Assembly: GCA_029259185.1 (NCBI GenBank)
Contig: JAPDJF010000053.1
Span: 1 to 39,172, forward strand
DNA: 39,172 nt
Direction: 5' to 3'
Origin: Hadesarchaea archaeon
GTDB taxonomy: Archaea > Hadarchaeota > Hadarchaeia > Hadarchaeales > WYZ-LMO6
In this document: in pieces, positions 9,520 to 27,845 of the stretch
Position numbering within the stretch: position 1 is the stretch's first letter
Layout of the letters: each line of letters begins with the position of its first letter
Program-made: the position numbers and the translations under genes
The notes under the pieces: generated by a model
Database searches by the model: none
What the model saw: only the letters and a program-made list of their open reading frames with translations
Told to the model about the DNA's origin: nothing

Positions 9520-9528
9520 GTGTTCAAG

Positions 9529-9780: not shown

Positions 9781-9789
9781 AGGGATACG

Positions 9790-12109: not shown

Positions 12110-13096
12110 TCATGCCTTCATCCTATCCTTTATTTCACGTATACGCTCGAGATAGTCGGTCTTGAGTCTTTCGTACTCCTCGGCTGAGATCTTTCCCTCT
12201 TTTTTGAACGATTTTAATCTTTCCATCATTTCTTCAAGTCCGTGCAGCATGTACTCCATCCTCATCTTCTGATCGGATGGTCGCATGCTTTTAGCTTCCT
12301 TTTCACGTGTTTTCTTCTTAGCCATCTTGGAGAGGTGTCTGAAAGCTAGGTACATCAAACATATCCACCCCACCAAAAAGATCAACTCAGAAAACATCCG
12401 AACGGTACCTTCACCGAAGAAAAAGCGGATTGAGATGAAGGAATTGTTCAGACCGTGCATGAAAACTGGTGCTACGGTGTTCCTAGACTTGGTGTATGCT
12501 ATTCCCATCCAGCAGAAGAATAGAAAGGCTGATCCGAACATCGTCAAACCAGGAATCCCAAAGTTGAGATACCAGAGGTGTACCGAGGAATGCATCGCAG
12601 AGGTACTCAAGATCGCGAAAATGGCCCCCCTATGGATTAGCCTTTCCAAAATGAAACCCCTGAAAACGAGTTCCTCAGAGAGAGCCACGGGTATAAATGA
12701 GGAGACCATCAAGTACGCGAAATACCAATCCGGCAACTCTCGTCTCATACGATTGAAGACTTCTTCACCAGGGTCCTTCCCTACGATCCTGAGAGCAACT
12801 TCTTGATAGGCTGTTAGGATGAATGTGAATACCACGAGTAGAGCCAATATCCAAACGAAACCTAATCCGAGTCCCCTTTTCTTGACCCCAACTGCCGACC
12901 AAAATTTTCTTTTTTCTCCCCTTAAGAAACCGAAAATGAGGAGGAGGGGAAGGACATATCCTATCCACTCCCCGACTATAGACCCGTAGGGCGACTCGAG
13001 TTCTATCGCGATTAACCCAACTAACCCGAGCGCAAGAAAACAGGATAGCCAGACGATGAGGATCGGGCCTGATTTCTCTCTATATTCCCTTTTCAC
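12110..13096 (-). CDS. CPBP (CAAX protease/Abi) family intramembrane metalloprotease with soluble C-terminal tail
   Basis: EELVFRG, HSSVH and HGLNN motifs; multiple TM helices; GKISAEEYERLK SHOCT-like end. Confidence 0.85.
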   Translation of the reverse strand: MKREYREKSGPILIVWLSCFLALGLVGLIAIELESPYGSIVGEWIGYVLPLLLIFGFLRGEKRKFWSAVGVKKRGLGLGFVWILALLVVFTFILTAYQEVALRIVGKDPGEEVFNRMRRELPDWYFAYLMVSSFIPVALSEELVFRGFILERLIHRGAIFAILSTSAMHSSVHLWYLNFGIPGLTMFGSAFLFFCWMGIAYTKSRNTVAPVFMHGLNNSFISIRFFFGEGTVRMFSELIFLVGWICLMYLAFRHLSKMAKKKTREKEAKSMRPSDQKMRMEYMLHGLEEMMERLKSFKKEGKISAEEYERLKTDYLERIREIKDRMKA

Positions 13097-14465
13097 GAAT
13101 TTCCTCCAGTTTTTTTCTCAGAATGGCAAGGGCTTCCCTCGGATCTGCCCTCCTCCTGCTCGCTGCAACCACCTTTCCCGTCAAAAAGTTGAGGACTTCA
13201 GACTTTCCTTCAAGATATTCACACACAGCTTGCTTGTGCTCGCGGATGACAGTGTTCACCACAGAGTCAAGCTCCTCTGGCTTGGGCGGAGAGAGTCCAA
13301 GCCTTTCGAGTATCCGTTCCGGATCATCCGGTTCCTTCACGAGTTCACGTAGAGCTAACTCCCCGTGCTCTCTCGGAATCTTTCTTGTCTCTACGAGCTT
13401 CAACAGACGGATTAGCTGGGTAGGGGTAAATCTGACATCTCTTGCCTTTAGGTTCACGTAGTTCAAAACTTTTTTGAGTTTGGTTCGGAACCAGTCCGCG
13501 GCGAGCTGAGGTTGTACTTCGGCAGCAACCCGCTCGAAGAGATCTGCAAGTTCCCGCTCACTTGTGATAACCCTCGCAGCTTGGGGAGATATCCCATATT
13601 GCCTTGCTAAACGCTTTTCTCTCAGGTGGGGTGGCTCAACCATCTGTTTTTTTATCCGCTCCACCATCTCTTCCGTGATGATGATCGGGAAGATATCTGG
13701 ATCCGGGATATACCTATAGTCCTCCTCGAACTCCTTTGTGCGCATGGGGACTGTTATCATCTGACTTTCTAGGTACGCCCTGGTTTCCCTCGTCACCACT
13801 TCACCTCGTCTGATTCTTTCCGCCTGTCGCTGCATTTCGAACTTTAACGCACGATAAGCTCCTTTGATCGAATTTATATTTTTGACTTCCACCCTTCCGC
13901 CCCCTTCGAGCGAAACGTTGACATCTGCACGCATTGCGCCCCCTGCTTCGGGTCTGACCTTACGAGTATACTCTAATACCCTCGTGAGTGTTCGCAGAAA
14001 ATTCCTAGCTTCTTCTGGAGATCTCATACCAGGTTCCGTAACTATTTCAACCAAGGGAACACCTGAACGGTTGAAATCTACGGTTCCGCTCACTGGATCG
14101 TATTGTCCAGGATCCTCCTCTATATGAACCTCCCGGATTCCTACCCCTTCCAAAACTCCATTCATTGCGATCGGCAAACTCGTCCGCTGATACCCGCTTG
14201 GAAGATCGGGATAATCGTAATGTTTCCGTTGGATGTATATTGGCTTGTTCTTCACTACCTCACATCCCAGCATGAGGGATATTTCCACGGCAGCATCTAT
14301 TGCTCCTTCATTGGGCATCATGGGTTTGGCTCCTGGCATCCCCGTGCATATTGGACAAACGTTCGTATTGGGGGGGACCTCAGCATAATTCGTGGGACAA
14401 TTACAATACAGCTTCTTGCTCGTCATGAGCTGGAGGTGAACCTCAAAGCCTATCCTGACTTGGAT
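13080..14465 (-). CDS. gatB: Asp/Glu-tRNA amidotransferase subunit B
   Basis: IGFEVHLQL, YPDLPSGYQ, EEDPG, DFNRSGVPLVEIVTEP, RVEVKN and DYRYIPDPD motifs. Start uncertain (see findings); the ORF-track start is 14585. Confidence 0.95.
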   Translation of the reverse strand: MQVRIGFEVHLQLMTSKKLYCNCPTNYAEVPPNTNVCPICTGMPGAKPMMPNEGAIDAAVEISLMLGCEVVKNKPIYIQRKHYDYPDLPSGYQRTSLPIAMNGVLEGVGIREVHIEEDPGQYDPVSGTVDFNRSGVPLVEIVTEPGMRSPEEARNFLRTLTRVLEYTRKVRPEAGGAMRADVNVSLEGGGRVEVKNINSIKGAYRALKFEMQRQAERIRRGEVVTRETRAYLESQMITVPMRTKEFEEDYRYIPDPDIFPIIITEEMVERIKKQMVEPPHLREKRLARQYGISPQAARVITSERELADLFERVAAEVQPQLAADWFRTKLKKVLNYVNLKARDVRFTPTQLIRLLKLVETRKIPREHGELALRELVKEPDDPERILERLGLSPPKPEELDSVVNTVIREHKQAVCEYLEGKSEVLNFLTGKVVAASRRRADPREALAILRKKLEEIREKGI

Positions 14466-15820
14466 GATTCCACCTCCAGAGCTCGCATCACTCTTAGGAT
14501 CTTCTCTTCCCCCAGCGGTTTTCCCTGAACCTGAATTCCAACTGGAATTCCGTTCACCTCTCCAGCTTTCACCACTCCAGCGCATGTTCCTGCGAGATTG
14601 GCCGGGATCGTGAGATAATCGTATGCGTACATCTCAAGGGGTGTGAGCCTCGTCCCGAGCTTGTGGGGAAGCTTGGGTACAGTCGGACCCACTATTGCAT
14701 CTACCTGTTTGAGAGCTAAACTGAGTTCCTTTCTTATTAGTGTCCTCACCTGAAGCGCTCGTTGGTAATACCTCCCTCTGTACTCTCTCCGGCTTATGTA
14801 GCTCCCAAGCATTATCCTTCTCAGAACTTCCTCACCACACACACTCTCGATGCGTTTTCCGTACTTTCTTCCGTCGTACTTTCGGGTAGCAGAGAAGAAC
14901 TCAACCGAAACTATTAGGTAATATGCGGAAAGTGCCTGCTCGATGTGGGGAAGGCGGATCTCCACGATCTCGGCTCCGAGGTCCTTTAGAAATTCCACTT
15001 TTTTTTCTATCACCCCTGTTATCCGTGGGTCAGTTAAATTTGAGAACTGGGGGCTGACCCCTATTCGCATTCCCTTCACCCCACCGTTTAACTCTCCATA
15101 GCTAACACGCTCGACATCCATCATCATTCCCTCTGCTTGGTTCTTCCCCGCGATGACTTCGAGTAGTAGAACAGATCCTGGGACATCGGGAGAGATAGGT
15201 CCTATCTGATCCAAGCTCATACCCAAGTCAATCAACCCTTGTCTGGGGACGAGCCCATAAGTGGGTTTCACCCCTATGACTCCGCAGTGACTGGCTGGGT
15301 TTCTGATGGATCCACCGGTGTCGGTGCCCAGAGCCAAGTCACACATCGCGGAAGCTACAGCTGCTGCGCTTCCACTGCTTGAGCCCCCCGGGATATAGCC
15401 AGGAGCAGCCGGATTGTCCGTGGGACCGAATGCACTCGTCTCTCCACTTGAGCCACATGCGAATTCGTCCATGTTCGTCATCCCTATGATGATTCCTCCT
15501 TCCCTCCGGATCCTTGTGATCACCTCAGCATCGTATGGACATACATAATCCTCAAGTGTTTTCGAAGCACATGTTGCTCGCAGACCTTTCACGTTGATGT
15601 TGGACTTCACAGCTATAGTGAGCCCCGCTAGCTTTCCAGCCTCACCGGCTTTTAGCATGCGGTCGACCTCGCCCGCTTCTTCCATCGCTTTCGAATTGAT
15701 CTCTAAAAACGCATTGAGCTTTCCGTTCAGTTTCCGAATGCGTTCCAACGCTAGTTCGACATTTTCTGTAGCAGAGAGTTCTCCGTTTCTGATAGCTTCA
15801 ATTTTTTCTAACGTGCCCAT
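14450..15820 (-). CDS. gatA: Asp/Glu-tRNA amidotransferase subunit A
   Basis: Amidase signature NMDEFA, PGGSSSGS, GTDTGGSIRNPA and KPTYG. Confidence 0.96.
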   Translation of the reverse strand: MGTLEKIEAIRNGELSATENVELALERIRKLNGKLNAFLEINSKAMEEAGEVDRMLKAGEAGKLAGLTIAVKSNINVKGLRATCASKTLEDYVCPYDAEVITRIRREGGIIIGMTNMDEFACGSSGETSAFGPTDNPAAPGYIPGGSSSGSAAAVASAMCDLALGTDTGGSIRNPASHCGVIGVKPTYGLVPRQGLIDLGMSLDQIGPISPDVPGSVLLLEVIAGKNQAEGMMMDVERVSYGELNGGVKGMRIGVSPQFSNLTDPRITGVIEKKVEFLKDLGAEIVEIRLPHIEQALSAYYLIVSVEFFSATRKYDGRKYGKRIESVCGEEVLRRIMLGSYISRREYRGRYYQRALQVRTLIRKELSLALKQVDAIVGPTVPKLPHKLGTRLTPLEMYAYDYLTIPANLAGTCAGVVKAGEVNGIPVGIQVQGKPLGEEKILRVMRALEVESSKSG

Positions 15821-16077
15821 CTCGCCACCTCAACCCTCAATTTTCCGTCATCGTCGGAAGCGGGCATTATCGAAATGAAACATTTCCTGAATTCTCTACG
15901 TACTGAAGGAGGTGAAGGTTCACCGTCAGGACGCAATGGGTTTACAAGTTCCTGCCCGTAGTATGTCTCCTCTTCTACTGGGAGGGATTCGATCACGCGC
16001 GTGAAAACTCTTAGGATTTCTTCAGCGCTTCTTTCGATTTCTTTTGGATTGAGATCCTGATCCTTTGAATCTGACAT
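15808..16077 (-). CDS. gatC: Asp/Glu-tRNA amidotransferase subunit C
   Basis: 89 aa directly upstream of gatA; EETYY and NPLRPD motifs. Confidence 0.8.
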   Translation of the reverse strand: MSDSKDQDLNPKEIERSAEEILRVFTRVIESLPVEEETYYGQELVNPLRPDGEPSPPSVRREFRKCFISIMPASDDDGKLRVEVARWAR

Positions 16078-16109: not shown

Positions 16110-16619
16110 TTAAGATTTGGGGGTAACTAGAAAGTCACAATGTTCATCCCCCTGGGAGAGACAGTGAATCTCCTCGGCCACGAATTCTCTCTTCACGAAC
16201 TCTTCGGTTACTCCTGCTATGAAACCAGCCATGTAGTAGCAAACCTTCATCCCCGTCCTTCCCATCTGTTTAGCGAGAAAGGTGCCATTCTTGAACCTCA
16301 GGATTCTCTTTCCGTTCTCCTTCAAGAATTCGATTTCCCCCGCACCGCTACAGGTGAAAAATGCGTTTGAATACTGCACCTTCTCCCGTATATCCTTATT
16401 CTCTAAGTGGAACTCCTCGGTCAACCACTTGCCGGCCCTTCTCCCGCAGTCTATTCCTATCTCATAGAGGAGGGAAAATGGGAGACCAGTCCGTATGTCT
16501 CTGGGGATCACATCTTGAATTTTCTTCCCCATACTCAACATGCAACAAAACCACATCTCGAATGCCTTTCTCCAGTTCCTTCCAAGAAACTCTTCTATCT
16601 CCTTCCTAGCCTTCTCCAT
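16110..16619 (-). CDS. V4R (4-vinyl reductase) domain protein
   Basis: LYEIG..G, CYYMAGFIAG and EIHCLSQGDEHCDF motifs. Confidence 0.85.
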   Translation of the reverse strand: MEKARKEIEEFLGRNWRKAFEMWFCCMLSMGKKIQDVIPRDIRTGLPFSLLYEIGIDCGRRAGKWLTEEFHLENKDIREKVQYSNAFFTCSGAGEIEFLKENGKRILRFKNGTFLAKQMGRTGMKVCYYMAGFIAGVTEEFVKREFVAEEIHCLSQGDEHCDFLVTPKS

Positions 16620-16673
16620 CTTTTCTTTTCAACTCACCAAAATATTAAGCTTGACTTCAGGGGATATGGGGGC

Positions 16674-17285
16674 CTAGGAGGGGTCCCTAGCCAGCCGTTC
16701 AGCGATTTTGAGATCGGCGCTCCTGTTCACATTCACAAGCCTTCTAACTTCCTTGCATATGAGAACTTCCTGTTCGATCCAAGGGTCGTCTACCTTTCTC
16801 CCGTCGATGATGTTGATCCCCACTGGAACAAAGCGTTCGCTCCCGATCTCAAAAAAGTACTGGGGTTTCAATCCAATTCTTTCATAAAGCCTGAACGGAA
16901 CGACCACGGTTAACGCAGGTTTCGTGCACCGCTCATAATACTTCACAACTTCATCGACTATGTCGGCTGTAAGGAGGGGCAGATCTGCCGAGACCACGAG
17001 CACCGGCAAAACAAAACCAAGCTTCTGGATCGCATAGCGCATGTCGGAATGATATCCTTCACCAGGAGTTCTAATGACTTCTAACGACATTTTTCTAACG
17101 ACCTCCTCGGTAAGAGGTGTGGCTTCGCTGACTGCTACAGCTATTTTTCTTACACGCTTGGAGTGCCGAAGGGCCTCGATAACACTCTCGATCATGGTTT
17201 TTCCACCCACCTTTAGCAAAGGTTTCTCACCCACACCTAGGCGTTCAGCCCTTCCTCCGGCCATCACGATTGCCGCTATGCCCAT
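16674..17285 (-). CDS. cobY: Adenosylcobinamide-phosphate guanylyltransferase (CobY)
   Basis: MAGGRAERLG.EKP, GEGYHSD, ADLPL, PVGIN and NVN motifs; cob operon context. Confidence 0.9.
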   Translation of the reverse strand: MGIAAIVMAGGRAERLGVGEKPLLKVGGKTMIESVIEALRHSKRVRKIAVAVSEATPLTEEVVRKMSLEVIRTPGEGYHSDMRYAIQKLGFVLPVLVVSADLPLLTADIVDEVVKYYERCTKPALTVVVPFRLYERIGLKPQYFFEIGSERFVPVGINIIDGRKVDDPWIEQEVLICKEVRRLVNVNRSADLKIAERLARDPS

Positions 17286-18034
17286 CCGGCCCCCACCAAT
17301 ACCCCCACGATGTTAATCGTTCTAGTTATCTCATTAGTCGCACCTAGGACATCCCCAGTCACGCCACCGAGTCGTCGGTGGGCGATCGATGTAAGGATGA
17401 GAGACGACACAACCGTAGTGAGCACCATGATTAGCCCGAGGGATCGAAGGAGAAGTGAGGAAAGAATGGTGGAGATCGAGAATGCGACCAAGAGACGATA
17501 TGAGCCAGAGGGGCCGTGCATAGCATTGATGAAGTAAGTGTTCACCCCCGGACGTGCAGACCTACCAGCCGCGGCCATGACTATCATCGAAAATTTGGCT
17601 AGAGTCTCCGCGACTATCAAGGTTGGGATTATACGGGAAACGTTGAGTTCAGCAACAGAGGATGCCGTTGCCAGTAACAAGAGTGATCCCAGCATAACAC
17701 CACCTGTGCCGATCCTCGGGTCATGCATGGCTTCGAGCCTCTGCTCTGGAGAACCGCAAACTATGAGGGCATCACCGAAGTCCAGAAGACCATCGAGGTG
17801 GTGAAACCCGCTCAACACATAGATGAACCCGGTCACCAACACCCCTGTGACTAGAGGTGGAACGGAGTGCAAAATCACCCATCCGAACGCTCCAGCGAGG
17901 AGACCGATGAGGGCTCCAACCACAGGGAAAAAATACATATTTTTCGCCGTCTTCTCCAATCCTTGGGGCCCCCCTCCAACAGGGAAAATGGTGAGAAATC
18001 TTAGAACGTTTTTGAATCCATCCACGGCTTCCAT
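17276..18034 (-). CDS. cobS: Adenosylcobinamide-GDP ribazoletransferase (cobamide synthase)
   Basis: FLT, HLDGLLDFGD, MHDPRIGTGG and GGVTGDVLGA motifs. Confidence 0.95.
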   Translation of the reverse strand: MEAVDGFKNVLRFLTIFPVGGGPQGLEKTAKNMYFFPVVGALIGLLAGAFGWVILHSVPPLVTGVLVTGFIYVLSGFHHLDGLLDFGDALIVCGSPEQRLEAMHDPRIGTGGVMLGSLLLLATASSVAELNVSRIIPTLIVAETLAKFSMIVMAAAGRSARPGVNTYFINAMHGPSGSYRLLVAFSISTILSSLLLRSLGLIMVLTTVVSSLILTSIAHRRLGGVTGDVLGATNEITRTINIVGVLVGAGWA

Positions 18035-18038
18035 CTTA

Positions 18039-18521
18039 TCACCCGTTCATCGCCCGCGCGTACATACGGGAAGATACCCCCCCGATAAGTCCTCCGATGA
18101 TATCATCCATCACTGGACCCAATTTTTTGAGCACACCCGGTTTGGCCCGATCAAACCTCATGTACTCGAAGATCCCATTGGTACCCCCTACATAATTGGC
18201 TATCGTCATGCCGAGCACCTCATCGGCCACAAAACTTCTTGGATCCTTTTTGAATTCAGATTTAGACATCCCGGGAATACCTCCCCGCTTGCCGCATTCT
18301 TCCAATTTTATTCCGGCTACTAAGAGGGCAGACACGTTTACGTCTGAGAGAGCTTTGCATAATTCTTTGTGGACCAGTTCAGCGGCTTTTTCTTTAGTCG
18401 CCACACCTGGGTGAGGCACATAGAGTTCCAAAACAGTGGCTACCAAATCAGAAAGAGAGATCCCCCTCCGCTCCAGTTCTTCAGTTAATGCCTCTAAAAC
18501 ATGGGTTCCTCTTACGCTCGT
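18039..18521 (-). CDS. cobZ: Alpha-ribazole phosphatase CobZ (archaeal, PgpA-like)
   Basis: ELYVPHPG, DVNVSALL, ADEVLG, FEYMRFDRAKPG and MDDIIGGL motifs. Frame is open up to ACG at 18521; first canonical start is TTG at 18446. Confidence 0.85.
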   Translation of the reverse strand, partial: TSVRGTHVLEALTEELERRGISLSDLVATVLELYVPHPGVATKEKAAELVHKELCKALSDVNVSALLVAGIKLEECGKRGGIPGMSKSEFKKDPRSFVADEVLGMTIANYVGGTNGIFEYMRFDRAKPGVLKKLGPVMDDIIGGLIGGVSSRMYARAMNG

Positions 18522-19606
18522 CTAAGCAACCTCCTGTAATTCTTCTCCACTTCTTTCATCAGCATCGCACACGTAATTCTCCCCCTCGTTTTCAAGATGG
18601 CTGACACCGCTGTCCCCCCTGCTCCAACGCCCTCTTTCACGACACCGGCCTCGTATGCTCTCAATCCATCCAATTCAGAACCGCTGAAGTCCAGATTGGC
18701 GGCGAGAATGGGAACGTCTGCTATTTGGGTGATTATCCCCTTCAAGTCCGCTGTTCTATCTTCTGTTATCCATCTTGTAGTCGCTATCGCTAGATTCCTG
18801 AGAACGTGTGGTCTCAGAGTCTTGATCACAGACAGCACCGCACCCATCTGAGTACCTCCTGCTAGCATAACAGGGATTTCTTGAGCAGCACCTATGGCCA
18901 CCCCTGCTACGGCTGGTATCATTGGATCTCCAACACAAGCTACAGCTCTGGAGGGATCCTCTTTCAGCTCCCCGAACCTCACGCCAGCAGCACGCATTCC
19001 TTGTTCAACCGTTTTCACCTTTAAGTCGTGCGGATTCCTGGGCATGCTGCTACTTACCTTTCTGCGGGCATCGATACCCATTCCCATCATTACCCCCAAT
19101 GCTGTCGTCGTCCCCCCCGGTATGCTCTCTCCGATCACCAAATAATCTGCACACTTAGCAAAGTTCCGTCCGCATATCTCAGCTCTCTCCAACACCTCCC
19201 CCACGTTTTCCACAGCTTTCCCCGTGCGGATATCTTTTCCCGGGGTCCCGCCGAGATCAATAAACGGTGTGTGGGGCTTGATCCTCGCCCCCCCAACCAC
19301 TACGAAGGTTGGAATGTTTGTCAGCTCCAACACCGACATCGTGATCAAGGCTGGAGTCGGAATCCCATCTGGGGTTATAGGAACCCCTTCCATACACCTG
19401 CATCTACCATGTAACAGCAGCTCTACATCCGCAGCTGGGGTGTAATCCGTGATCTCAGGAGTTTTTCCAGCGGCGGAAATTTTTGGGATCTTCGCCGTTT
19501 CCGTGGTTCCGATCGCACATATAAAGATCGGGCTCTTCCCCATGAGTCTGCCTATCCACTCTTTACCCTTTGGCTCGTTGTGAACAACAATTACGTCGTC
19601 GGTCAT
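18512..19606 (-). CDS. cobT: Archaeal nicotinate-mononucleotide:base phosphoribosyltransferase CobT
   Basis: ISAAG, TPAAD, PTPALIT, GESIPGGTTTA, LAGGTQM and KEGVGAGG motifs. Confidence 0.92.
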   Translation of the reverse strand: MTDDVIVVHNEPKGKEWIGRLMGKSPIFICAIGTTETAKIPKISAAGKTPEITDYTPAADVELLLHGRCRCMEGVPITPDGIPTPALITMSVLELTNIPTFVVVGGARIKPHTPFIDLGGTPGKDIRTGKAVENVGEVLERAEICGRNFAKCADYLVIGESIPGGTTTALGVMMGMGIDARRKVSSSMPRNPHDLKVKTVEQGMRAAGVRFGELKEDPSRAVACVGDPMIPAVAGVAIGAAQEIPVMLAGGTQMGAVLSVIKTLRPHVLRNLAIATTRWITEDRTADLKGIITQIADVPILAANLDFSGSELDGLRAYEAGVVKEGVGAGGTAVSAILKTRGRITCAMLMKEVEKNYRRLLRRA

Positions 19607-20553
19607 CAAGTATTCCTCCACAGACAGAGGGGAGTTACTACGATTGTCAAGAACAAAATAACGGAAAGCATCATTATTTGCAAAGCTTGAATCACGTGTT
19701 TACAATCCGTCTCCCCTCCGTCTCCTAGAACGTAATGTCCCGGTTTTTCCAATCGGACACCTAGGGCTCCAGCCATCGCAGACATTGGCCACCCAGCGTT
19801 CACACTTTCCGTCTTGCTCCTATCCCTTCTCAGGATCCTCCACGAATTTCTGCTGTTTTTCCCCACCAGCGAGGCCGAGATCACTATTAAATATGCTGTC
19901 AGGCGAGCGGGGATGAAATTCAGGAGGGTGTCGAGCTTCGCGGAAAACCACCCGATATGGACGTGCTTGGGATCCTTGTAGCCGATCATGGAATCTAGGG
20001 TGTTAACCACCCGGAATACAACCGCTCCCGGGACTCCAAAAAGGGCAAAATAAAAAAGTGGAGATGTTACCCCATCCACCGTACTTTCCGCCACACATTC
20101 TACTGTCGCTGATAACATCAGTCCCTGATCGAGTCCAGATGTATCCCTCCGAACGATCCGGGAGAGATGTTTGCGTGCTCTCTGGACATCACCATTTCTA
20201 AGGAAAGCTATCACTCTGAGAGAAGCGTCTTTCATGCTCTTTACAGCGAATGTAAGTTTCAAGAGAATTGCCGAAACGAGGATACACGTAGGCAGGGGGA
20301 GGTGCCGCTGGATCAGCAGGAGAACTACATAGACGGGGATCAAGAAAATGCAAATCACTGATATCGCAAACAGGGCTCCCTTTATCTTCTCGACTTTGGG
20401 ATTCTCCGCTCGAAAGCTGGGTTCCAAGATCCCTATCAGCTTTCCCATCCAAGCCGTGGGGTGAAATTTGTTCGGAGGATCACCAAGTAAATAATCCATC
20501 AGCACCGCCAGACCAATTATGGCGATCGAAACTGTGACCCCCTGAAGATTCAT
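19606..20553 (-). CDS. cbiB: Adenosylcobinamide-phosphate synthase CbiB
   Basis: GDPP..HP, IVRRDT, AESTVDG, NTLDSMIGY, PARL and NAGWPMSAMAGALG motifs. Confidence 0.95.
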   Translation of the reverse strand: MNLQGVTVSIAIIGLAVLMDYLLGDPPNKFHPTAWMGKLIGILEPSFRAENPKVEKIKGALFAISVICIFLIPVYVVLLLIQRHLPLPTCILVSAILLKLTFAVKSMKDASLRVIAFLRNGDVQRARKHLSRIVRRDTSGLDQGLMLSATVECVAESTVDGVTSPLFYFALFGVPGAVVFRVVNTLDSMIGYKDPKHVHIGWFSAKLDTLLNFIPARLTAYLIVISASLVGKNSRNSWRILRRDRSKTESVNAGWPMSAMAGALGVRLEKPGHYVLGDGGETDCKHVIQALQIMMLSVILFLTIVVTPLCLWRNT

Positions 20554-22022
20554 TTTTCACGCCCTTCCAAAATTTTTAGCCGGATACCGATCAATTTCTT
20601 CCTCGAAATTTTCTCTAACGGTTCTGCGATTTTAAGGAGCTCTTCAAGTATTTGCCTCGCTACCTCAGGCTGGTGAACCCACCAGCAGTTTTGGCAGCTC
20701 CAAACAACCCCACTACCGCTTTTTACCCACTCTCCACCTGTTGATTTCTCCTTACACGGGTAGAAGGGGCAAAAGCACCACGTACAATCCTGCCCATCAA
20801 AGTGACACGGATAATATTTGCACGCTCTGTTCTCCCCTAAAACCCGGCCAGCTTTAAGAACTTCGTTGATGTGCCTCTTGGTCCACCTTTCGCTTTTTAA
20901 AATCGCCCCCAAGGCCTTGAGGAGCCTTGCATTCTCTTTACGCCTGCGAACGGCTATTCTAACAAAATATTCATCAAGCCCCCTAAACGGGCTACAATCC
21001 CTTATTAGGATACCGTATCTAAGGAGTTCCTTCTTCAGCTGAGTAGCCGTCATACCGGTACCTCGGATATCCAGAAGTAGGAAATTAGTATCACTCGGAA
21101 ACACCCGAAGGTGCTTGAATTTAGTAAACCCCCTAGATAGATACTCTCTTTCCCTAACGATCAGCTGCCGGGCTCTAACCATGTATTCATCATCACCTAA
21201 TGCTGCCACCGCGGCGATTTGGGCGAGAACATTAACATTCCAAGGAGTCTTAGCCCTGTGAAGTAACTCGATCATCTCCTCGCAACCAGCACCATACCCA
21301 ACTCTGAGTCCGGGTAGCCCAAAGGTTTTGGTTAGGGATCTTAAGACAAAGAGGTTGGGGTGTGCCCGCACATCTCTTATGAGCGTGAATCGCTCATTAC
21401 CGTTGACAAAATCCATGAAGCTCTCATCGATGAAAACTAGGATATTTCTTTGGCTGGCTTCCTTGACTATTTTCAGCATGTCTTTTCTCTTGATGAGCTG
21501 ACCCGTGGGATTGTTTGGATTGCAAAAAAACAAGATTTTTGTCCTTTTCCTAAATTGGCCCACGACTTCATCCGCTTTAATACAAAAGCCGGCTGGATCT
21601 AACTTCAGAAAATTTATCTTTCCTCCAGCTTTTCTTACGGCGATCTCGTACTCTCCAAACGTGGGCGCAGGTATGAGGGCCTCATCCCCCCTCTCGATGA
21701 AAACTTCAGCGAATAACCGTATGAGTTCGGTCGAACCATTCCCTATTATGATGTTCCCAGTGCTTATGCCCAGCTTTCGGGCGATTATAAGTCTCAGTGG
21801 AAACGAGGCTGGGTCCGGATAGAAAGAAATTTGTTTGAGGTTGTCCCTGAGGGCTACCAGTGCTTTTGGGGATGGACCGAGCGGATTTGTGTTTGCGCTG
21901 AAATCAAGTATCTCCTCCGGTTTCTTTCTTTCCGTCCTAGCTACCTCCAACACCTCTCCGCCGTGCTTGCAGGGCTCCAGCGTCGGGATTTCCCTTCGGG
22001 CCAATTTTATGAGAGATCCCAT
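20550..22022 (-). CDS. cobD: L-threonine-O-3-phosphate decarboxylase CobD with fused C-terminal Cys-rich domain
   Basis: HGG, DFSANTNPLG, CNPNNPTG, DESFMDF and RSLTKTFGLPGLRVGY motifs; C-terminal CKYYPCH..CTWCFCPFYPC..CQNC. Confidence 0.92.
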   Translation of the reverse strand: MGSLIKLARREIPTLEPCKHGGEVLEVARTERKKPEEILDFSANTNPLGPSPKALVALRDNLKQISFYPDPASFPLRLIIARKLGISTGNIIIGNGSTELIRLFAEVFIERGDEALIPAPTFGEYEIAVRKAGGKINFLKLDPAGFCIKADEVVGQFRKRTKILFFCNPNNPTGQLIKRKDMLKIVKEASQRNILVFIDESFMDFVNGNERFTLIRDVRAHPNLFVLRSLTKTFGLPGLRVGYGAGCEEMIELLHRAKTPWNVNVLAQIAAVAALGDDEYMVRARQLIVREREYLSRGFTKFKHLRVFPSDTNFLLLDIRGTGMTATQLKKELLRYGILIRDCSPFRGLDEYFVRIAVRRRKENARLLKALGAILKSERWTKRHINEVLKAGRVLGENRACKYYPCHFDGQDCTWCFCPFYPCKEKSTGGEWVKSGSGVVWSCQNCWWVHQPEVARQILEELLKIAEPLEKISRKKLIGIRLKILEGREK

Positions 22023-22050
22023 TCCATTCTCCTCCCTATACCCCTCCGAT

Positions 22051-22083
22051 ATATTTAAATATTGGATGGACTATCCATCCAAT
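22051..22083. promoter_or_regulatory. Bidirectional TATA (ATATTTAAATAT) plus inverted-repeat operator ATTGGATGGA-CTA-TCCATCCAAT
   Basis: Both palindromes seen directly in the 59-bp gap between divergent cobD and btuF. Confidence 0.7.
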
Positions 22084-23011
22084 GATGAAAAAGGAACACC
22101 GAATGTTTATAGCACTCGCTTTAGTCTTAGTCTCCCTGCTTCTGATCGGCATAGGGATAACTGTAAAACCAATAGAGACTTCCGAATACCCAATGACAGT
22201 TGTGGACCAGATGGGAAGAACCGTATCTTTGCCGAAAGAACCTGAAAACATAATCTCGCTTGCTCCATCCAATACTGAGATTTTGTTTGCGTTGGGACTG
22301 GGTGACAAAGTTATAGGAGTAACGACATATTGCGATTACCCTCCCGAAGCTACGGAGAAGGAGAAAATCGGTGGCTTTTCAACAGTTGATGTGGAAAAAG
22401 TAGTCTCACTGCATCCGGATTTAGTCGTGGCCACAGGTGGGGTACAGACCAAATTCGTAGAACAGCTCGAGGACTTAGGCGTTTCCGTCATCGTTTTGGA
22501 TCCCGAAAACTTGGATGAAATCTTGGAAGGAATTGAGTTGGTAGGCAAGGTCACAGGTGTAGAGGACAGAGCAAGAGAACTCGTGGACAACATGCAGCAG
22601 AGGATAGAGTACATTACTTCCAAAACCGAAGATCTCTCAACCCGACCGAAAGTCTTCTACGTCACGTGGCACGATCCATTGTGGACGGCTGGTCGGGACA
22701 CATTCCAAGATGCCATTATAACCCTAGCTGGTGGAAATAACATCGCCTCTGATACCGAGGGGTACTTCGTCTACGATCCCGAGATGCTGGTGACCCAAGA
22801 CCCGGATGTGATCATCCTCGGTGCACATGGCATAACCCCTGCCGACATGGAATCGCTGTCCTGGTGGTCTGAATTAAAAGCTGTTAAAGAAAACAGGGTA
22901 TACACCATCGACCCTGATATTACAAGCAGGCCTGGTCCTCGAGTGGTCGAGGCCTTAGAGCAGGTGGCCCAATTCCTCCATCCTGAACTCTTTCAACTCG
23001 CAACAGCCTAG
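22082..23011 (+). CDS. btuF: Cobalamin ABC transporter substrate-binding protein
   Basis: N-terminal anchor; IISLAPSNTEILFALG, CDYPP, PDVII and SRPGPR motifs; cob context. Confidence 0.9.
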   Translation: MMKKEHRMFIALALVLVSLLLIGIGITVKPIETSEYPMTVVDQMGRTVSLPKEPENIISLAPSNTEILFALGLGDKVIGVTTYCDYPPEATEKEKIGGFSTVDVEKVVSLHPDLVVATGGVQTKFVEQLEDLGVSVIVLDPENLDEILEGIELVGKVTGVEDRARELVDNMQQRIEYITSKTEDLSTRPKVFYVTWHDPLWTAGRDTFQDAIITLAGGNNIASDTEGYFVYDPEMLVTQDPDVIILGAHGITPADMESLSWWSELKAVKENRVYTIDPDITSRPGPRVVEALEQVAQFLHPELFQLATA

Positions 23012-23022
23012 GGTGCAAGGAT

Positions 23023-24060
23023 TTGAACCACCCAGGTAAAAAAGCTTCTCTTTGGATCATCCTGATCGCTGGATTGATATCTTCAATTATTTTCTCCACC
23101 GTGGTGGGTTCTGCAGGCATTCCCTTTCCCGATGTCTGCAATGCGCTTTTGAGTAAGCTCCCGGTGCTGAACAAACTCGCAGGTCCAGTTCCCGCCACCT
23201 ACGAAACGATAATATTTCAGATCAGGTTGCCTAGGATCCTCCTAGGAGCGATGGTGGGGGCGGGTTTAGCTGTTGCAGGTACCGTACTCCAAGCGTTGTT
23301 CAAAAATCCGATGGCAGAACCCTATATAATCGGGGTCTCTTCCGGAGCCTGCCTGGGGGCCACGCTGGCCTTTCTGACCCCAATCAGCTCGGGGTGGTTC
23401 GGATCAAGCTGGGTGACGTTGATGAGTTTTCTGGGAGCAACCGTAACGCTCTATGTTGTATACAACATAAGCAAAATCGGGGGGAAAGTACCGATCGAAA
23501 CGCTGTTGTTGGCCGGAATAGCCGTGGCTTCCTTTCTCTCCGCCATAACAACGTTTTTAATGGTCCAGGCCGGTGAAGACCTTCACAAGATATACTTCTG
23601 GCTGGTTGGATCCCTGTCGGCCAAAGGGTGGGCTCAAGTGGAAGTGGCATCAGTGTGTGTGATAGTGGGAATCTTTGTTCTATATCTCTTCGCGCGAGAT
23701 CTGAATGTTATGCTCACGGGCGAGGAATCGGCCAGCCAGCTCGGAGTGGAAGTCGAAAGATCAAAAAAAGTGGTTCTCGCCGTGTCCACACTCGTCACCG
23801 GAGCAGCGGTATCGGTCAGCGGAGTGATCGGATTTGTGGGACTAGTCACGCCCCACATGATGAGGATTCTGGTGGGACCCAACCATTACACACTTATCCC
23901 TGCATCGGCTCTAGCTGGTAGCATAACCCTAACCCTTTCTGACACCGCGGCACGAATGATTTTCTCCCCCCAAGAGATTCCGGTAGGGGTAGTAACTGCT
24001 CTCTTCGGGGTACCGTTCTTCCTCTATCTCCTCAGGAAACGGAGGAAGGCGATGTTTTAG
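23023..24060 (+). CDS. btuC: Cobalamin ABC transporter permease (FecCD family)
   Basis: IRLPR, NPMAEPYIIGVSSGA, GEESASQLG, IGFVGL and EIPVG motifs. Confidence 0.92.
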   Translation: MNHPGKKASLWIILIAGLISSIIFSTVVGSAGIPFPDVCNALLSKLPVLNKLAGPVPATYETIIFQIRLPRILLGAMVGAGLAVAGTVLQALFKNPMAEPYIIGVSSGACLGATLAFLTPISSGWFGSSWVTLMSFLGATVTLYVVYNISKIGGKVPIETLLLAGIAVASFLSAITTFLMVQAGEDLHKIYFWLVGSLSAKGWAQVEVASVCVIVGIFVLYLFARDLNVMLTGEESASQLGVEVERSKKVVLAVSTLVTGAAVSVSGVIGFVGLVTPHMMRILVGPNHYTLIPASALAGSITLTLSDTAARMIFSPQEIPVGVVTALFGVPFFLYLLRKRRKAMF

Positions 24061-24069
24061 GTGACGAGC

Positions 24070-25413
24070 GTGGGGGAGGTCACTTTAAAAATAGAGAACG
24101 TCGAATGCACCTACGGCACCACCAGAATTCTCAAAAATATCAGTTTCGAAATCAAGCCAGGAGATTTCGTCGGTCTGATCGGTCCAAACGGTTCTGGAAA
24201 AACGACCCTCCTCAAGAGCATCAGCAGGGTGCTGAAACCACGTGTTGGTATAGTACTGTTGGATGGGAAGGACGTTTACACCCTCAAAGCGAAAGAGGTG
24301 GCAAAAAAGGTAGGAGTCGTCCCCCAAGAAACCCCAATTCCGTTTCAGTTCACGGCTTTGGAGATAGTGCTGATGGGACGCACCCCTCATCTGGGATGGT
24401 TGGAAAGCGAGAAGGAGAGGGATTACGAAATAGCGAGGACTGCCATGAAAATCGCCAATTGTCTGCATCTCTCCGATAGGATATTCGCGGAACTCAGCGG
24501 GGGGGAGAAACAGCGGGTTCTGATCGCGCGCGCTCTGGCACAGGAGCCAAAGGTTCTGCTGCTCGACGAGCCAACCGCGCACCTCGACATCAACTATCAG
24601 GAGGAAATATTGAACCTCCTCAAGCGTCTGAGCGGAGAAAAACTGACGATCTTGGCCGTTTTCCACGATCTCAACCTAGCCGCTCGATACTGTGACTCCC
24701 TCATCCTGCTGAACCAAGGGGAAATAGAAGCCATAGGAACTCCCGAAGAGGTTTTGACACCTGAAAACATCAAACGAGTTTACCGGATAGAAGTACTCGT
24801 AAAACGGCACCCAATAACGAATTCGCTTTACCTCATCCCCTTCCTGACTTCGAATCCGCAAACCGATGCTTGTGACGATTTTACGGTCCATTTGGTGTGC
24901 GGTGGGGGAACGGGAACACCTCTCATGCATTCCTTACTCAAGCAGGGGTACAGGGTAACGGTTGGTGCGGTGAGCACACTCGATACCGATTATGAGGCGA
25001 CTACGTATCTGAATGTCCCCGTCGTGACCCTTCCACCCTTTTCTCCCGCAAGCGATGATGCCCACAGGATACATCTGGAACTCGTGGGGCGGGCGGATGC
25101 CGTGGTGCTCACCGATGTCCCCATCGGTTGGGGAAACCTAAAAAACCTAGAGGCGGTTGAGGTTGCCCTGAGGAAGGGAATCCCGGTGATAATGGTTGGA
25201 GAAACACCCTTCGAAAAGCGGGATTTCACGGGGGGAGAGGCCCTGGAGCGTTTAATCCGTCTAAAAGATGAAGGGGCAATATGCGTCAAAAGTTTGAACG
25301 AAGTTTTGACCGTGATCGAGACGCTGAGAAGATCGTGCAGGGCATGCAGGGGTAAGAGCACCCAAAAACCGTTATCTGAGGCGAGAGGACGGCCCCTAGA
25401 AGCCTTTGAATAA
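24070..25413 (+). CDS. btuD: Cobalamin ABC transporter ATPase with extra C-terminal domain
   Basis: GPNGSGKTT, LSGGEKQRV, LLDEPT and HDLN motifs; extension starting VHLVCGGGTG. Start 24070 or 24061. Confidence 0.9.
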   Translation: MGEVTLKIENVECTYGTTRILKNISFEIKPGDFVGLIGPNGSGKTTLLKSISRVLKPRVGIVLLDGKDVYTLKAKEVAKKVGVVPQETPIPFQFTALEIVLMGRTPHLGWLESEKERDYEIARTAMKIANCLHLSDRIFAELSGGEKQRVLIARALAQEPKVLLLDEPTAHLDINYQEEILNLLKRLSGEKLTILAVFHDLNLAARYCDSLILLNQGEIEAIGTPEEVLTPENIKRVYRIEVLVKRHPITNSLYLIPFLTSNPQTDACDDFTVHLVCGGGTGTPLMHSLLKQGYRVTVGAVSTLDTDYEATTYLNVPVVTLPPFSPASDDAHRIHLELVGRADAVVLTDVPIGWGNLKNLEAVEVALRKGIPVIMVGETPFEKRDFTGGEALERLIRLKDEGAICVKSLNEVLTVIETLRRSCRACRGKSTQKPLSEARGRPLEAFE

Positions 25414-25421
25414 ACTCGGAG

Positions 25422-26414
25422 ATGATCATGGGACCCTGCGAAATCCAAAAAGGAAGGATCTTTGAAGAGATCGGCAGGAGGCTCGTGAAAGAGCTGGATG
25501 GAAGCGTGAAAAGAAATCCGGCAGATGCTATCCTGCTTTCAGGCGGACTGGACACTTCGATCCTCGCCTATCTGCTGTCCAAACGATCGAAGCCTACCGC
25601 TCTGACCGTTGTATTCGAGGGTGCCCCGGCATCGGATCTCCCTTACGCTGAACTCATGGCCAGACGATTAGATCTACCTCATTTCGTTCATACGTTCGGG
25701 AAAGACGAGTTTCAAGAAGCCGTTCAATTCGTGGTGAAAGTCATGGACTCGTTTGATCCAATGGAGGTCCGCAACAGCGTGGCGATCTATGAGGGCCTGA
25801 GGAGAGCGAGAGAACTGGGATTGAACACCGTTATGACTGGCGACGGGTGCGACGAACTTTTCGCGGGATACAGCTTTCTCTATTCTCTGAAACTCGATGA
25901 GCTCTCCTCCGAACTCCAGAAGGTGTGGTCCGTAATGGACTTCTCCTCCATACATCTAGCAAAAGCACTCGGGATGGAGGCCAAGCTTCCGTACTTGGAT
26001 CCGGAGTTCAAGCACTTCGCGATGAAACTCGATCCCATACTCAAAGTCGGGAAGAAAGACGGAAAACTATGGGGTAAGTGGATACTGCGCAAGGCGTTCG
26101 AGGATGTGTTACCGGAAGATGTCGTGTGGAGGATTAAGACCCCCATCGAGTGCGGATCCGGCACCACCATCCTCCCCAAGCTCTTCGATTCGCTCGTCTC
26201 CGACGCAGAGTTCTATGATAAAAAGAAGAAGTACCTCAAAGAGGACGGGATAAAACTCAGGACCAAGGAGCAGATGTACTACTATGAAGTTTACAGGAAA
26301 GTCGTGGGAGTCCCCCGCCGAACGAACCTAAAAGGCAAGGTTTGTCCTTATTGCAATTTTGATTTGCCTCCCATATCCACACACTGCCGGAGATGTGGGG
26401 CCTACCCGGTTTAA
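25422..26414 (+). CDS. Asparagine-synthetase-like ATP pyrophosphatase (no glutaminase domain) with C-terminal Zn ribbon
   Basis: LLSGGLDTS PP-loop, TGDGCDELFAGY, PYLD and KWILRKAF motifs; CPYC...CRRC at the C-terminus. Confidence 0.88.
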   Translation: MIMGPCEIQKGRIFEEIGRRLVKELDGSVKRNPADAILLSGGLDTSILAYLLSKRSKPTALTVVFEGAPASDLPYAELMARRLDLPHFVHTFGKDEFQEAVQFVVKVMDSFDPMEVRNSVAIYEGLRRARELGLNTVMTGDGCDELFAGYSFLYSLKLDELSSELQKVWSVMDFSSIHLAKALGMEAKLPYLDPEFKHFAMKLDPILKVGKKDGKLWGKWILRKAFEDVLPEDVVWRIKTPIECGSGTTILPKLFDSLVSDAEFYDKKKKYLKEDGIKLRTKEQMYYYEVYRKVVGVPRRTNLKGKVCPYCNFDLPPISTHCRRCGAYPV

Positions 26415-26424
26415 GGTAGTGCGT

Positions 26425-27132
26425 ATGAACGTTTACCATATAACTTACGCCCCGGAAATTAAAACCGCAAGTCTCTATTTTGACGGTTGTAATTTCAATT
26501 GCTTAGGCTGCATCAGAAAAAAGACCATGTACGATGTCCATTTGAAAGCCAGATCAGGAAGTAAATCCGGTTTTCTGAGTTTGAACGAGGTTTTGAAAAT
26601 TTTGAACCGGATCGGGGCTCGAACGGTGATAATGATGGGCGGCGAGCCCACCATCGATCCAGAACTTCCCACCTTAGTCGAAAAGTTGCGGAAATCTGGG
26701 ATTTCCAGCGTTTTGTTGACGAATGGTTATGAGCTAGAGGATAAACTGCTGGAAAACGTGGACAGGATATGTGTGAGCATAAAAGCATGGTCCGATGAAT
26801 TACACAGAAAATTCACAGGAAAATCCAACAAAAACACGTTGAAAAACTTCAGAAAAATCTATGATTCGGGTGTTAGCTTGTACTCCGAATCCATATACAT
26901 CCCTAGCCTAGTCGAGGTGAGGGAGATCGGGAAGATCGCGCGATTCATTTCTTCGGTTGACCCTGAGATCCCGTATCGCATTGATGCTTATATCCCGGTT
27001 AACGGTTTATGGCGGGCCCCTACTTCTAAAGAAGTTAAAGAAGCTGTAAAAGAAGCGAAAAAACACCTGCGGAGGGTAACTTGTCTGTACGGCGACGAGA
27101 AGTTAAAATATGAGGTCCTTAACGTGATTTGA
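26425..27132 (+). CDS. Radical SAM protein (activating-enzyme-like)
   Basis: CNFNCLGC (CxxxCxxC), GGEPT, LTNG and SIKA motifs. Confidence 0.9.
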   Translation: MNVYHITYAPEIKTASLYFDGCNFNCLGCIRKKTMYDVHLKARSGSKSGFLSLNEVLKILNRIGARTVIMMGGEPTIDPELPTLVEKLRKSGISSVLLTNGYELEDKLLENVDRICVSIKAWSDELHRKFTGKSNKNTLKNFRKIYDSGVSLYSESIYIPSLVEVREIGKIARFISSVDPEIPYRIDAYIPVNGLWRAPTSKEVKEAVKEAKKHLRRVTCLYGDEKLKYEVLNVI

Positions 27133-27145
27133 AAAGTTGACCGAT

Positions 27146-27805
27146 ATGACTAAAGTGGCCGTATCGTGGAGCGGAGGGAAAGAGAGTTGCTTGGCATGCT
27201 ACAGGGCGATCTCACGGGGCCTTGAGGTTTCTCACCTTTTGAATTTCGTAAACAAGGGAAGCGAAAGATCGATGGGACACGGGTTGGATCCTGAGCTGAT
27301 CCTCGCACAGTCTCAAGCGATGGGGATCCCGCTCGTTCAGAGAGAGACTTCATGGGAGACCTATGAACGGAAATTCAAAGACGCCGTGCTGGAGCTGAAA
27401 CGGAGGGGTGTGAAAGGCATCGTGTTTGGTGACGTTGATCTTCAGGAGCACAAAGATTGGGTGGAAAAAGTTTGCAGGGAGCTCGATGTTGAGCCGGTAG
27501 AGCCTCTGTGGGGAGGTGATCCGATGGAACTTCTCAACGAATTCGTGAACGCGGGGTTTGAAGCAATCGTAGTCAGGGTCAGGGGAGATCTGCTTGGTGA
27601 GGAATGGCTGGGACGCAGGGTGAACAGAGTTTTTCTAAGAGATATAGCAAAGGAACCCATCCATCCGCTGGGAGAGAAAGGAGAATATCACACATTCGTT
27701 ACCAATGGGCCCATCTTCAAGCACCGAATAAGAATACTCGGAAGTGACAAGGTCGTTAAGGATGGATACCACTCTATGGTTATAAAGAAGTGGAGGGTGG
27801 GATAA
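27146..27805 (+). CDS. Dph6-like (diphthine-ammonia ligase family) ATP pyrophosphatase
   Basis: SWSGGKES, VFGD, PLW, WLGR and GEKGEYHTFV..GP motifs. Confidence 0.88.
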   Translation: MTKVAVSWSGGKESCLACYRAISRGLEVSHLLNFVNKGSERSMGHGLDPELILAQSQAMGIPLVQRETSWETYERKFKDAVLELKRRGVKGIVFGDVDLQEHKDWVEKVCRELDVEPVEPLWGGDPMELLNEFVNAGFEAIVVRVRGDLLGEEWLGRRVNRVFLRDIAKEPIHPLGEKGEYHTFVTNGPIFKHRIRILGSDKVVKDGYHSMVIKKWRVG

Positions 27806-27845
27806 AAGAGGCTTGATTTTAGCATTTCCGGTTACTGATAACTCC

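Follow-up and report, generated by a model that had tools for sequence, protein, structure and literature searches.

Two amide-ligase-like ATP pyrophosphatases and a small radical SAM protein as a candidate accessory module of corrinoid salvage in a Hadesarchaea archaeon

The ATP-driven conversion of corrin carboxylates to amides is carried out by CbiA and CbiP/CobQ, amidotransferases that have a glutaminase domain and release ADP, not AMP. Asparagine synthetase B (AsnB) and Dph6 also turn a carboxylate into a primary amide. De Crecy-Lagard et al. (2012, PMC3541065) divided the family that contains Dph6, DUF71/COG2102, into Dph6 and a subgroup named DUF71-B12, which has ENGE[F/Y]H as its defining motif; Pyrococcus furiosus (PF0295) and Methanosarcina mazei are among the organisms that they list with it. 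According to that paper, 75 of 102 subgroup members adjoin B12 transporter genes and 18 of 102 adjoin cbiB, nearly all genomes with CbiB have either CbiZ or DUF71-B12, the two are anticorrelated in bacteria, and a CbiZ-like role in pseudo-B12 salvage was predicted for the subgroup. In 39,172 nt of contig JAPDJF010000053.1 of a Hadesarchaea archaeon (GCA_029259185.1), called the window below, a gene of this subgroup was found at the end of a BtuFCD-type importer operon, behind the genes of an AsnB-like protein and of a small radical S-adenosylmethionine (SAM) protein. The three enzymes probably process imported B12-like molecules, because many unrelated microbes carry them next to genes for B12 uptake and salvage. 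The AsnB-like PP-loop family with its ribbon is abbreviated AsnBL and the small radical SAM family rSAM. Six open reading frames (ORFs) of the + strand follow one another with intergenic gaps of 11, 0, 8, 10 and 4 nt, behind a spacer shared with a divergent operon:

22082..23011, + strand, btuF-type substrate-binding protein with an N-terminal hydrophobic segment (Peripla_BP_2, E 2.7e-38)
23023..24060, + strand, btuC-type permease (FecCD, E 7.4e-97)
24061..25413, + strand, btuD-type ABC ATPase (ABC_tran, E 4.2e-35)
25422..26414, + strand, AsnB-like PP-loop ATP pyrophosphatase lacking a glutaminase domain and carrying a four-Cys ribbon (Asn_synthase, E 5.1e-38)
26425..27132, + strand, small PflA-like radical SAM protein of 235 aa (Radical_SAM PF04055, E 1.6e-23; Fer4_12)
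27137..27805, + strand, Dph6 paralogue of DUF71-B12 type (Diphthami_syn_2 PF01902, E 3.3e-55)
22023..22081, no strand, divergent intergenic region between cobD and btuF, 59 nt, with an AT-rich TATA-like stretch at about 22049-22063, read directly

An earlier note on this DNA had described the same order of btuF-btuC-btuD and three enzymes, and Pfam and NCBIfam agree on every family; its gaps of about 8-13 bp come near the measured ones. The radical SAM gene most likely starts at 26425 and not at the overlapping TTG at 26359, because a 99% identical database protein has 235 aa. The 59-nt spacer may serve as a promoter region. A T-rich stretch lies 3' of the Dph6-like gene and is followed by a convergent gene. 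Positions 22003-27900 are covered by a contig from another run with 7 differences, and positions 24340-27706 (btuD to the Dph6-like gene) by a 3370-nt contig from a separate study with 2 differences. The gene order is therefore real, and an assembly chimera is ruled out. Near-identical copies of 22000-27900 were seen in contigs of runs labelled hydrothermal vent metagenome, and 0.76 of the sampled words of this segment in one run of another study labelled marine metagenome; no RNA data set was listed as containing it.

Like the DUF71-B12 proteins described in 2012 (PMC3541065), the Dph6-like protein has the Pfam domain and a PP-loop (SGGKES in the translation and in alignment A2, fitting SGGK[DE]S), a His in place of the Dph6 Glu, a true Dph6 beside which it is the second copy, and clustering with btuFCD and cbiB; these are all of the features by which the subgroup is recognised. 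The genome holds two PF01902 matches, one on another contig (C9, 261.9 bits) with the Dph6 motif EGGEYET and one in the window (186.9 bits) with GEKGEYHT. Against the Dph6 model TIGR03679 the window's protein scored 152.9 bits, below the cut-off of 197.3. Because of the better Dph6 on C9 and the His motif, the window's gene is not the sole diphthamide enzyme, a case that the earlier note had named as fatal to its proposal; by these sequence marks it is a paralogue and no diphthamide enzyme. Its nearest solved relatives are PH1257 and PF0828-type structures (E ~1e-32). With Dph6, the diphthine-ammonia ligase and an ATP- and NH3-dependent amide former, it shares fold and PP-loop, but it differs in its score, in the His for a catalytic-site Glu, in the presence of a true Dph6 elsewhere and in its cobamide rather than translation context. 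The His-for-Glu change would still allow general-base catalysis. The form GExGE[YF]H was found in 25 of 25 full-length DUF71 genes beside AsnBL and in 22 of 22 DUF71 genes of metagenome cob operons. A GAT-AsnB-DUF71 fusion (P0127) was considered as support for amidation and discarded: its DUF71 domain carries the Dph6-type EGGEAE and is silent on the B12 subgroup. In a Freyarchaeota chromosome a second DUF71 gene has an acyl-CoA synthetase and a weakly B12-binding radical SAM protein as neighbours, which was uninformative.

Of E. coli AsnB (1ct9, E 6.8e-22), only the synthetase half, residues 229-508, is matched by the AsnB-like protein, which has 330 aa. No GATase domain is among its Pfam matches; it is therefore without a glutaminase domain, as the earlier note had it. 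In an alignment of 20 sequences (A1) the SGGLDTS PP-loop, TGDGCDELFAGY and WRxK are invariant or nearly so, and the four C-terminal cysteines C308, C311, C322 and C325 that make up the ribbon are invariant in 20/20 homologues, against a mean column identity of 74%. The PP-loop and the AsnB-type motifs GDGCDE and WRxK are thus kept. Scores lie below the equivalog cut-offs of NF006949 (151.1 of 499 bits) and TIGR01536 (111.8 of 267.1 bits). The AsnB motif YDCARANK reads FSSIHLAK in the alignment to 1ct9; its Asp and Arg are presumably aspartate-binding positions of AsnB. The synthetase domain of asparagine synthetase B, beta-lactam synthetase and CarA resemble AsnBL in the C-terminal PP-loop domain, the SGGLDS-type loop, GxGxDE and WRxK, whereas AsnBL has no glutaminase domain, adds the four-Cys ribbon, is altered at the presumed aspartate-binding positions and is linked to cob and btu genes.

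In the radical SAM translation one cluster motif, C-x3-C-x2-C, is present, so that the CxxxCxxC protein of the earlier note stands, with its start amended as above. The closest solved relative is PflA (8fo0, E 1.9e-9). No NCBIfam cut-off is passed; the best model, of YjjW type, gave 61.7 of 250.2 bits, and PflA 48.4 of 231.75 bits. Small radical SAM enzymes of the PflA, NrdG and QueE types are alike in size, in the N-terminal CxxxCxxC and in the combination of Fer4_12 and Radical_SAM, but rSAM lies below every family cut-off, adjoins btuF, and no glycyl-radical partner was seen. The family is the smaller one, with 299 matches.

Relatives of AsnBL were collected by a pattern scan with one genome per species, which found 164; the best 80 of the 164 were used. 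They are 48-64% identical (50-65% across phyla) and come from archaea (Hadarchaeota, Bathyarchaeia, Nitrososphaerota, Asgard lineages, Methanomethylicota) and from bacteria (Dehalococcoidia, Planctomycetota, Calditrichota, and metagenome-assembled genomes (MAGs) labelled Deltaproteobacteria). Neighbours of cob, btu, DUF71 and rSAM type were called by tblastn with the window's proteins at fixed thresholds. Among these best 80 loci, 24 hold cob genes, 14 btu genes and 27 either; DUF71 was found in 26, rSAM in 10 and any of these in 35. Where both flanks reached at least 3 kb (44 loci), the linkage counts were 16, 15 and 7. As a control, 20 loci of similar size that surround the canonical Dph6 gene in these genomes were put through the same test, and none holds cob or btu genes. 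Blind clustering of neighbouring ORFs (within 5 kb) was led by DUF71 (20 loci), CobS (19), BtuD (16), and BtuF, BtuC and CobD (12 each), with CobZ, CbiB, bacterial CobT, rSAM and CobC as further common neighbours. The control and the clustering rule out chance adjacency, and the recurrent btu/cob linkage expected from the earlier note is borne out over many phyla. One non-cob family is among the commonest neighbours, a DUF4443 winged helix-turn-helix protein (11 loci). Separately, 8 Bathyarchaeia loci without cob genes nearby have, convergent to AsnBL, a radical SAM protein of 496 aa (in L027 at 8945-10435) whose N-terminus carries a zinc ribbon of HMPTM type. Both were considered as clues to function and set aside, as neither could be connected to one.

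On a tree of AsnBL from all 80 loci and the window, cob context changes at least five times across starred branches. It occurs in Hadarchaeota (window's clade 99*), in a bacterial clade nested among archaea (98*), in several Bathyarchaeia clades, in Heimdall and in Methanomethylicota. Of 13 bacterial loci, 5 have btuF behind a cobalamin riboswitch, for example L060 (riboswitch-btuF-AsnBL). A typical Dehalococcoidia operon (L030) reads rSAM / riboswitch-btuF-btuC-btuD-unknown-cbiZ-cbiB-cobD-AsnBL-cobT-cobS-cobC-DUF71-DUF71-cobU. Within the btu-cob operons of Dehalococcoidia a conserved Cys-rich protein of about 240-256 aa was also noted (L030 4336-5061 and L066 3246-4016, 47% identical), with no Pfam family at E <=0.01. 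Fusions join AsnBL with its ribbon to DUF71-B12 (P0122), DUF71-B12 to a transmembrane segment and BtuF (P0121, P0123), and DUF71-B12 to CbiC (P0124).

Metagenome loci were gathered from the DUF71::CbiC fusion; 24 of 80, in which the DUF71 half was matched, were used, the other 56 matching the CbiC half alone. AsnBL and rSAM are each found in 0 of these 24. DUF71-B12 stands there in producer-type clusters of the order CobS-CobD-(CbiJ)-CobQ-CbiB-DUF71-BtuFCD, and 19 of 23 DUF71 loci had cob/btu matches. Metagenome cob operons also contain SPASM-type radical SAM proteins (L135 1430-2803, L112 2329-3750), which are situated upstream of CobQ or CobT-like genes and are not related to the rSAM of the window. 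The module is very probably part of corrinoid uptake and salvage, but an optional part of modular composition: DUF71-B12 is met most often, AsnBL frequently accompanies it in anaerobic salvagers, and rSAM is rarer.

AsnBL might instead be a housekeeping enzyme, an ammonia-dependent asparagine synthetase or a partner of GatCAB, with its place in the btu operon not corrinoid-related. It is the sole Asn_synthase-family gene of the genome, as a check for a further asnB showed (the other match to the Pfam model is argininosuccinate synthase), its identity across phyla is 50-65%, and gatCAB genes are found near it, both elsewhere and in the window:

13080..16077, - strand, gatC-gatA-gatB (Amidase, GatB_N, GatB_Yqey), directly downstream of the cob operon

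These genes lie 5.3 kb upstream of btuF and 8.8 kb from the AsnB-like gene, and gatC-gatA-gatB stands directly upstream of AsnBL in 7 Nitrososphaerota-type loci (L048, L052, L055, L056, L065, L079, L049). All seven form one starred clade on the AsnBL tree, so that one origin suffices, whereas cob contexts are scattered over the tree; membership of gatCAB in the module is doubtful. The fusion to DUF71-B12, the riboswitch-led operons and the cob/btu control of 0/20 make the housekeeping reading less likely, the change of YDCARANK to FSSIHLAK is a further point against it, and it is rated as the least probable of the alternatives considered.

The genes available for using an imported corrinoid were examined in the window's genome (1.27 Mb, 94.9% complete). 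On the - strand of the window, supported by Pfam matches and described in the earlier note from cobD to cobY, lies the divergent operon:

16110..22022, - strand, cobD(zf-like)-cbiB-cobT-cobZ-cobS-cobY-V4R, nucleotide-loop assembly (Pfam)

Its CobZ is PgpA-like. Whole-genome searches found no CbiZ, CbiA, CbiC or PduO-type transferase, and no CobQ above the cut-off, one match reaching 19.6 bits; the absence of cbiZ, cbiP/cobQ and cbiA noted earlier for the window thus extends to the genome. The earlier note saw no adenosyltransferase in the window; a CobA-type adenosyltransferase is on another contig (C15). Proteins with a B12-binding domain are present. The organism, as judged from its gene content, uses and salvages corrinoids, makes no corrin ring of its own, and retains CbiB and CobD with no known source of cobyric acid. 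Two MCR-alpha matches were also seen at contig starts (C13:272-646, C38:269-649). For F430 amidation no gene was found, with no CbiA/CfbB-type diamide synthase match and the 19.6-bit CobQ match alone, other F430 genes lying outside the search.

Genome-level counts were made for 50 of the 80 AsnBL loci, namely all 19 bacterial and 31 archaeal ones, longer contigs being favoured. CobQ above the cut-off was found in 3 of the 50 genomes, CbiC in 1, CbiZ in 13, CbiB in 22, CobS in 29, the BtuF family in 32 and PF01902 in 45 (including 14 of the 19 bacteria). The sets are nested, every genome with CbiZ having CbiB and every genome with CbiB having CobS. A Freyarchaeota record titled chromosome holds AsnBL and a His-motif DUF71 and lacks CbiB, CobS, CbiZ, CobQ and CbiC. 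Among 66 genomes of the window's phylum, AsnBL was found in 13 and CobS in 5, all 5 of which carry AsnBL. In the sister genus AsnBL, CobS and CbiB were each found in 0 of 5 genomes, four of them at least 92% complete, and an rSAM match in 3 of 5; in two (G112, G114) an rSAM-DUF71 pair with the His motif is divergent from a Hadarchaeota-type membrane protein and adjoins a V4R gene.

These counts bear on the role proposed in 2012, in which DUF71-B12, perhaps with AsnBL, would be equivalent to CbiZ and cleave or bypass the f-side-chain amide of cobamides or cobinamide, giving cobyric acid for CbiB. It was drawn from the occurrence of CbiZ or DUF71-B12 in nearly all CbiB genomes and the anticorrelation of the two in bacteria (PMC3541065). 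The window's genome, with CbiB and CobD and neither CbiZ nor CobQ, would suit it, as would 9 of the 22 CbiB-containing genomes that likewise have neither, and DUF71 often adjoins cbiB. However, cobyric acid would be a dead end in the 28 of 50 genomes without CbiB, in the 21 of 50 without both CbiB and CobS, and in the sister genus, which lacks both. CbiZ and DUF71 occur together in 4 of 19 bacterial genomes, and in L030 in one operon, which removes the strict anticorrelation behind the idea. CbiZ, an adenosylcobinamide amidohydrolase, shares operons with DUF71-B12 and the salvage step proposed for it, but has an unrelated fold and hydrolytic chemistry, and 13 of 50 genomes have both CbiZ and the module; PP-loop enzymes are not known to be hydrolases. 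A CbiZ-like function is therefore regarded as unlikely.

A second possibility is that AsnBL or DUF71-B12 acts as a soluble ligase in place of CbiB, adenylating the f-carboxylate of cobyric acid and joining it to aminopropanol or its phosphate, or otherwise supplies cobinamide-phosphate to CobY. Such an enzyme would fill a gap in the 7 of 50 genomes that have CobS and no CbiB, including a Bathyarchaeota record titled chromosome with S-component-CobT-CobS-CobY and CobZ but without CbiB, CbiZ or a close CobD, and in bacteria AsnBL stands directly after cbiB-cobD. In five CbiB-less genomes, though, the best CobD-like match is 27-36% identical, compared with 49-56% for CobD from cob clusters of the same class, so the amine donor seems to be absent too. 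CbiB and AsnBL are found together in 22 of 50 genomes, and the module also occurs without CobS. This ligase is judged a little less probable still than the CbiZ-like function. As the module is present without CbiB and CobS, a product that feeds CbiB or CobY does not explain it.

A third possibility is processing by other chemistry. rSAM might act at the cobalt, removing or installing the upper ligand, or the PP-loop enzymes might activate an amide oxygen and not a carboxylate; activation of an amide or ureido oxygen occurs in the PP-loop enzymes QueC and argininosuccinate synthase. The module does not need loop-assembly genes to work, and rSAM is the member most tightly tied to uptake. In the window's phylum 9 of 66 genomes have rSAM, and so have 13 of the 50 AsnBL genomes. 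These 13 AsnBL genomes contain 14 copies, of which 13 have a btu, cob, AsnBL or DUF71 gene at a distance of 3 kb or less; for 7 of the 14 a BtuF gene is no more than about 1 kb away, and some are placed between btuF and btuC. Its place beside btuF suggests that rSAM handles the incoming cofactor, and radical SAM enzymes often act on tetrapyrrole side chains (HemN, AhbC/D). Yet the genome already has the CobA adenosyltransferase, presence in 13 of 50 genomes means that rSAM is not core, and we know of no precedent. Processing of this kind is also unlikely, although it ranks above the other alternatives.

The reading preferred here is ammonia-dependent amidation of the side-chain carboxylates of imported corrinoids, which would be the most economical mechanism and is given a probability of about 0.4. 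BtuFCD would import corrinoids, and the last three genes would form a conserved, optional accessory module of their salvage. AsnBL and DUF71-B12 would each adenylate a free side-chain carboxylate of the imported corrinoid, and reaction of the adenylate with free ammonia would give the amide, AMP and pyrophosphate. Incompletely amidated or deamidated corrinoids could in this way be completed or repaired, for use or for passage to CbiB, CobY and CobS. The two enzymes may, speculatively, divide positions as CbiA and CbiP do, and rSAM would act on the same corrinoid, by side-chain or Co-C bond chemistry. The sole carboxylates on a corrinoid are its un-amidated side chains. Amidation is therefore favoured, because the adenylation machinery is kept, there is no glutaminase, the ancestry is amide-forming and there are no other carboxylates. 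A need for such a step can be argued from the genome, which lacks CbiA, CobQ, CbiZ and CbiC, and from the AsnBL genomes, 47 of 50 of which lack CobQ and 49 of 50 CbiC. The net reaction would be that of CbiA and CbiP/CobQ, but the three proteins are not homologous to these and have neither the CbiA nucleotide-binding nor the GATase_3 domain (Pfam). A general role as a replacement of CbiA/CbiP in de novo producers was rejected on the CbiC count and on the CobQ-like gene that adjoins producer-type DUF71-B12.

Several points weigh against amidation. The corrinoid substrate, the carboxylate site, the ammonia nucleophile and any role of rSAM are all inferred, amidation included, and rSAM has no part in the amidation scheme. 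Amidation capacity already exists in producer-type operons, where DUF71-B12 follows CobQ-CbiB; a CobQ-like protein was found within two genes upstream in 6/6 loci tested. No cob, btu, DUF71 or rSAM neighbour was called in 45 of the 80 AsnBL loci, and the clade of 7 is linked to gatCAB instead. Many of the counted genomes are incomplete MAGs, and related genomes are not independent. Amidation also presupposes a natural supply of deamidated or under-amidated corrinoids. Amidation would nevertheless fit the phyletic pattern better than its rivals. Re-amidation by the three genes, as the earlier note had suggested, is partly supported: it agrees with linkage and phyletic pattern as the most economical option, with a link to asparagine or ammonia metabolism as an alternative. 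It is put forward as a tentative possibility that AsnBL and DUF71-B12, with help from rSAM, act together, and without any need for glutamine, in the re-amidation or other repair of imported corrinoids.

All three importer components (FecCD, Peripla_BP_2 and ABC) are present by Pfam. The top NCBIfam models of the permease and the ATPase are corrinoid or B12 ones, but all three parts score below the equivalog cut-offs: btuF gave 135.3 bits (cut-off 234) against the BtuF model NF002894, btuC 358 bits (461) against the BtuC model NF007081, and btuD 346.8 bits (537) against NF007082, 'corrinoid ABC transporter ATPase'. Corrinoid specificity of BtuFCD is therefore suggested by context, in particular by the divergent cob operon. 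BtuD has a C-terminal extension of about 190 aa (~24841-25410), which by itself has no Pfam match. Among corrinoid ABC ATPases this extension seems characteristic of the archaeal ones, since BtuD matches in related loci are about 1250 nt long in archaea and about 740 nt in bacteria.

The uptake genes near AsnBL vary by lineage, being BtuFCD, an energy-coupling-factor-type S component (L013, L047, L181) or, in loci of Hadarchaeota, a gene pair divergent from AsnBL (L183 8830-9937, L010 5017-6111). The pair codes for a DUF4430 protein and for a multi-pass membrane protein, about 224 aa long, that matches no Pfam family. It is also found elsewhere in the window's genome (contig C3, ~60830-61937, which is L183) and is a possible second corrinoid uptake system there. 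DUF4430 is the C-terminal domain of transcobalamins (PMC4350170).

In the divergent operon, CobD (20550-22022, - strand) has a C-terminal Cys-rich 'zf-like' domain (PF04071), which bacterial CobD in related loci lacks. CobD of Methanosarcina mazei, a bifunctional threonine kinase/decarboxylase, has this domain arrangement. The operon is closed by a V4R-domain protein (16110-16619, - strand). In the sister genus, homologues 43-46% identical to it (L194 11676-12191, L195 8313-8813) have the rSAM-DUF71 pair and a putative transporter as neighbours, and the V4R protein may be a further member of the salvage system.

In the open-access literature, the 2012 supplements (which might list such neighbours) aside, no paper was found that ties an AsnB-like or a PflA-like radical SAM protein to cobamide salvage; nor was an experimental test of DUF71-B12 found in what is searchable of that literature. 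The AsnB-like and radical SAM partners are not mentioned in the passages of the 2012 paper on DUF71-B12, and the CbiZ-like role given there fits the present phyletic data poorly (PMC3541065). The earlier note had taken the step to be unassigned for all of these families; this appears to stand for the two partners, whereas the Dph6-like subgroup had already been linked to B12 salvage. What appears to be new is the module of three genes, with its fusions and its spread, together with the evidence that speaks against a CbiZ-like role.

Most microbes rely on corrinoids made by others, and the forms they can use shape communities; Dehalococcoidia used in bioremediation and subsurface archaea are examples of corrinoid-dependent microbes. 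A conserved module has been located within the salvage operons of many uncultured lineages, led by riboswitches in bacteria. The data weaken the only published functional proposal, a CbiZ-like one, and give a biochemical hypothesis that can be checked with concrete substrates. They also expose genomes that have CbiB with no known source of cobyric acid, and others that have CobY and CobS with no known source of cobinamide-phosphate. If the amidation reading is true, the module would be the first dedicated pathway for repair or completion of corrin ring side chains, independent of nucleotide-loop remodelling. Such a pathway would have spread by gene transfer among anaerobic corrinoid auxotrophs and would define which environmental corrinoids they can use.

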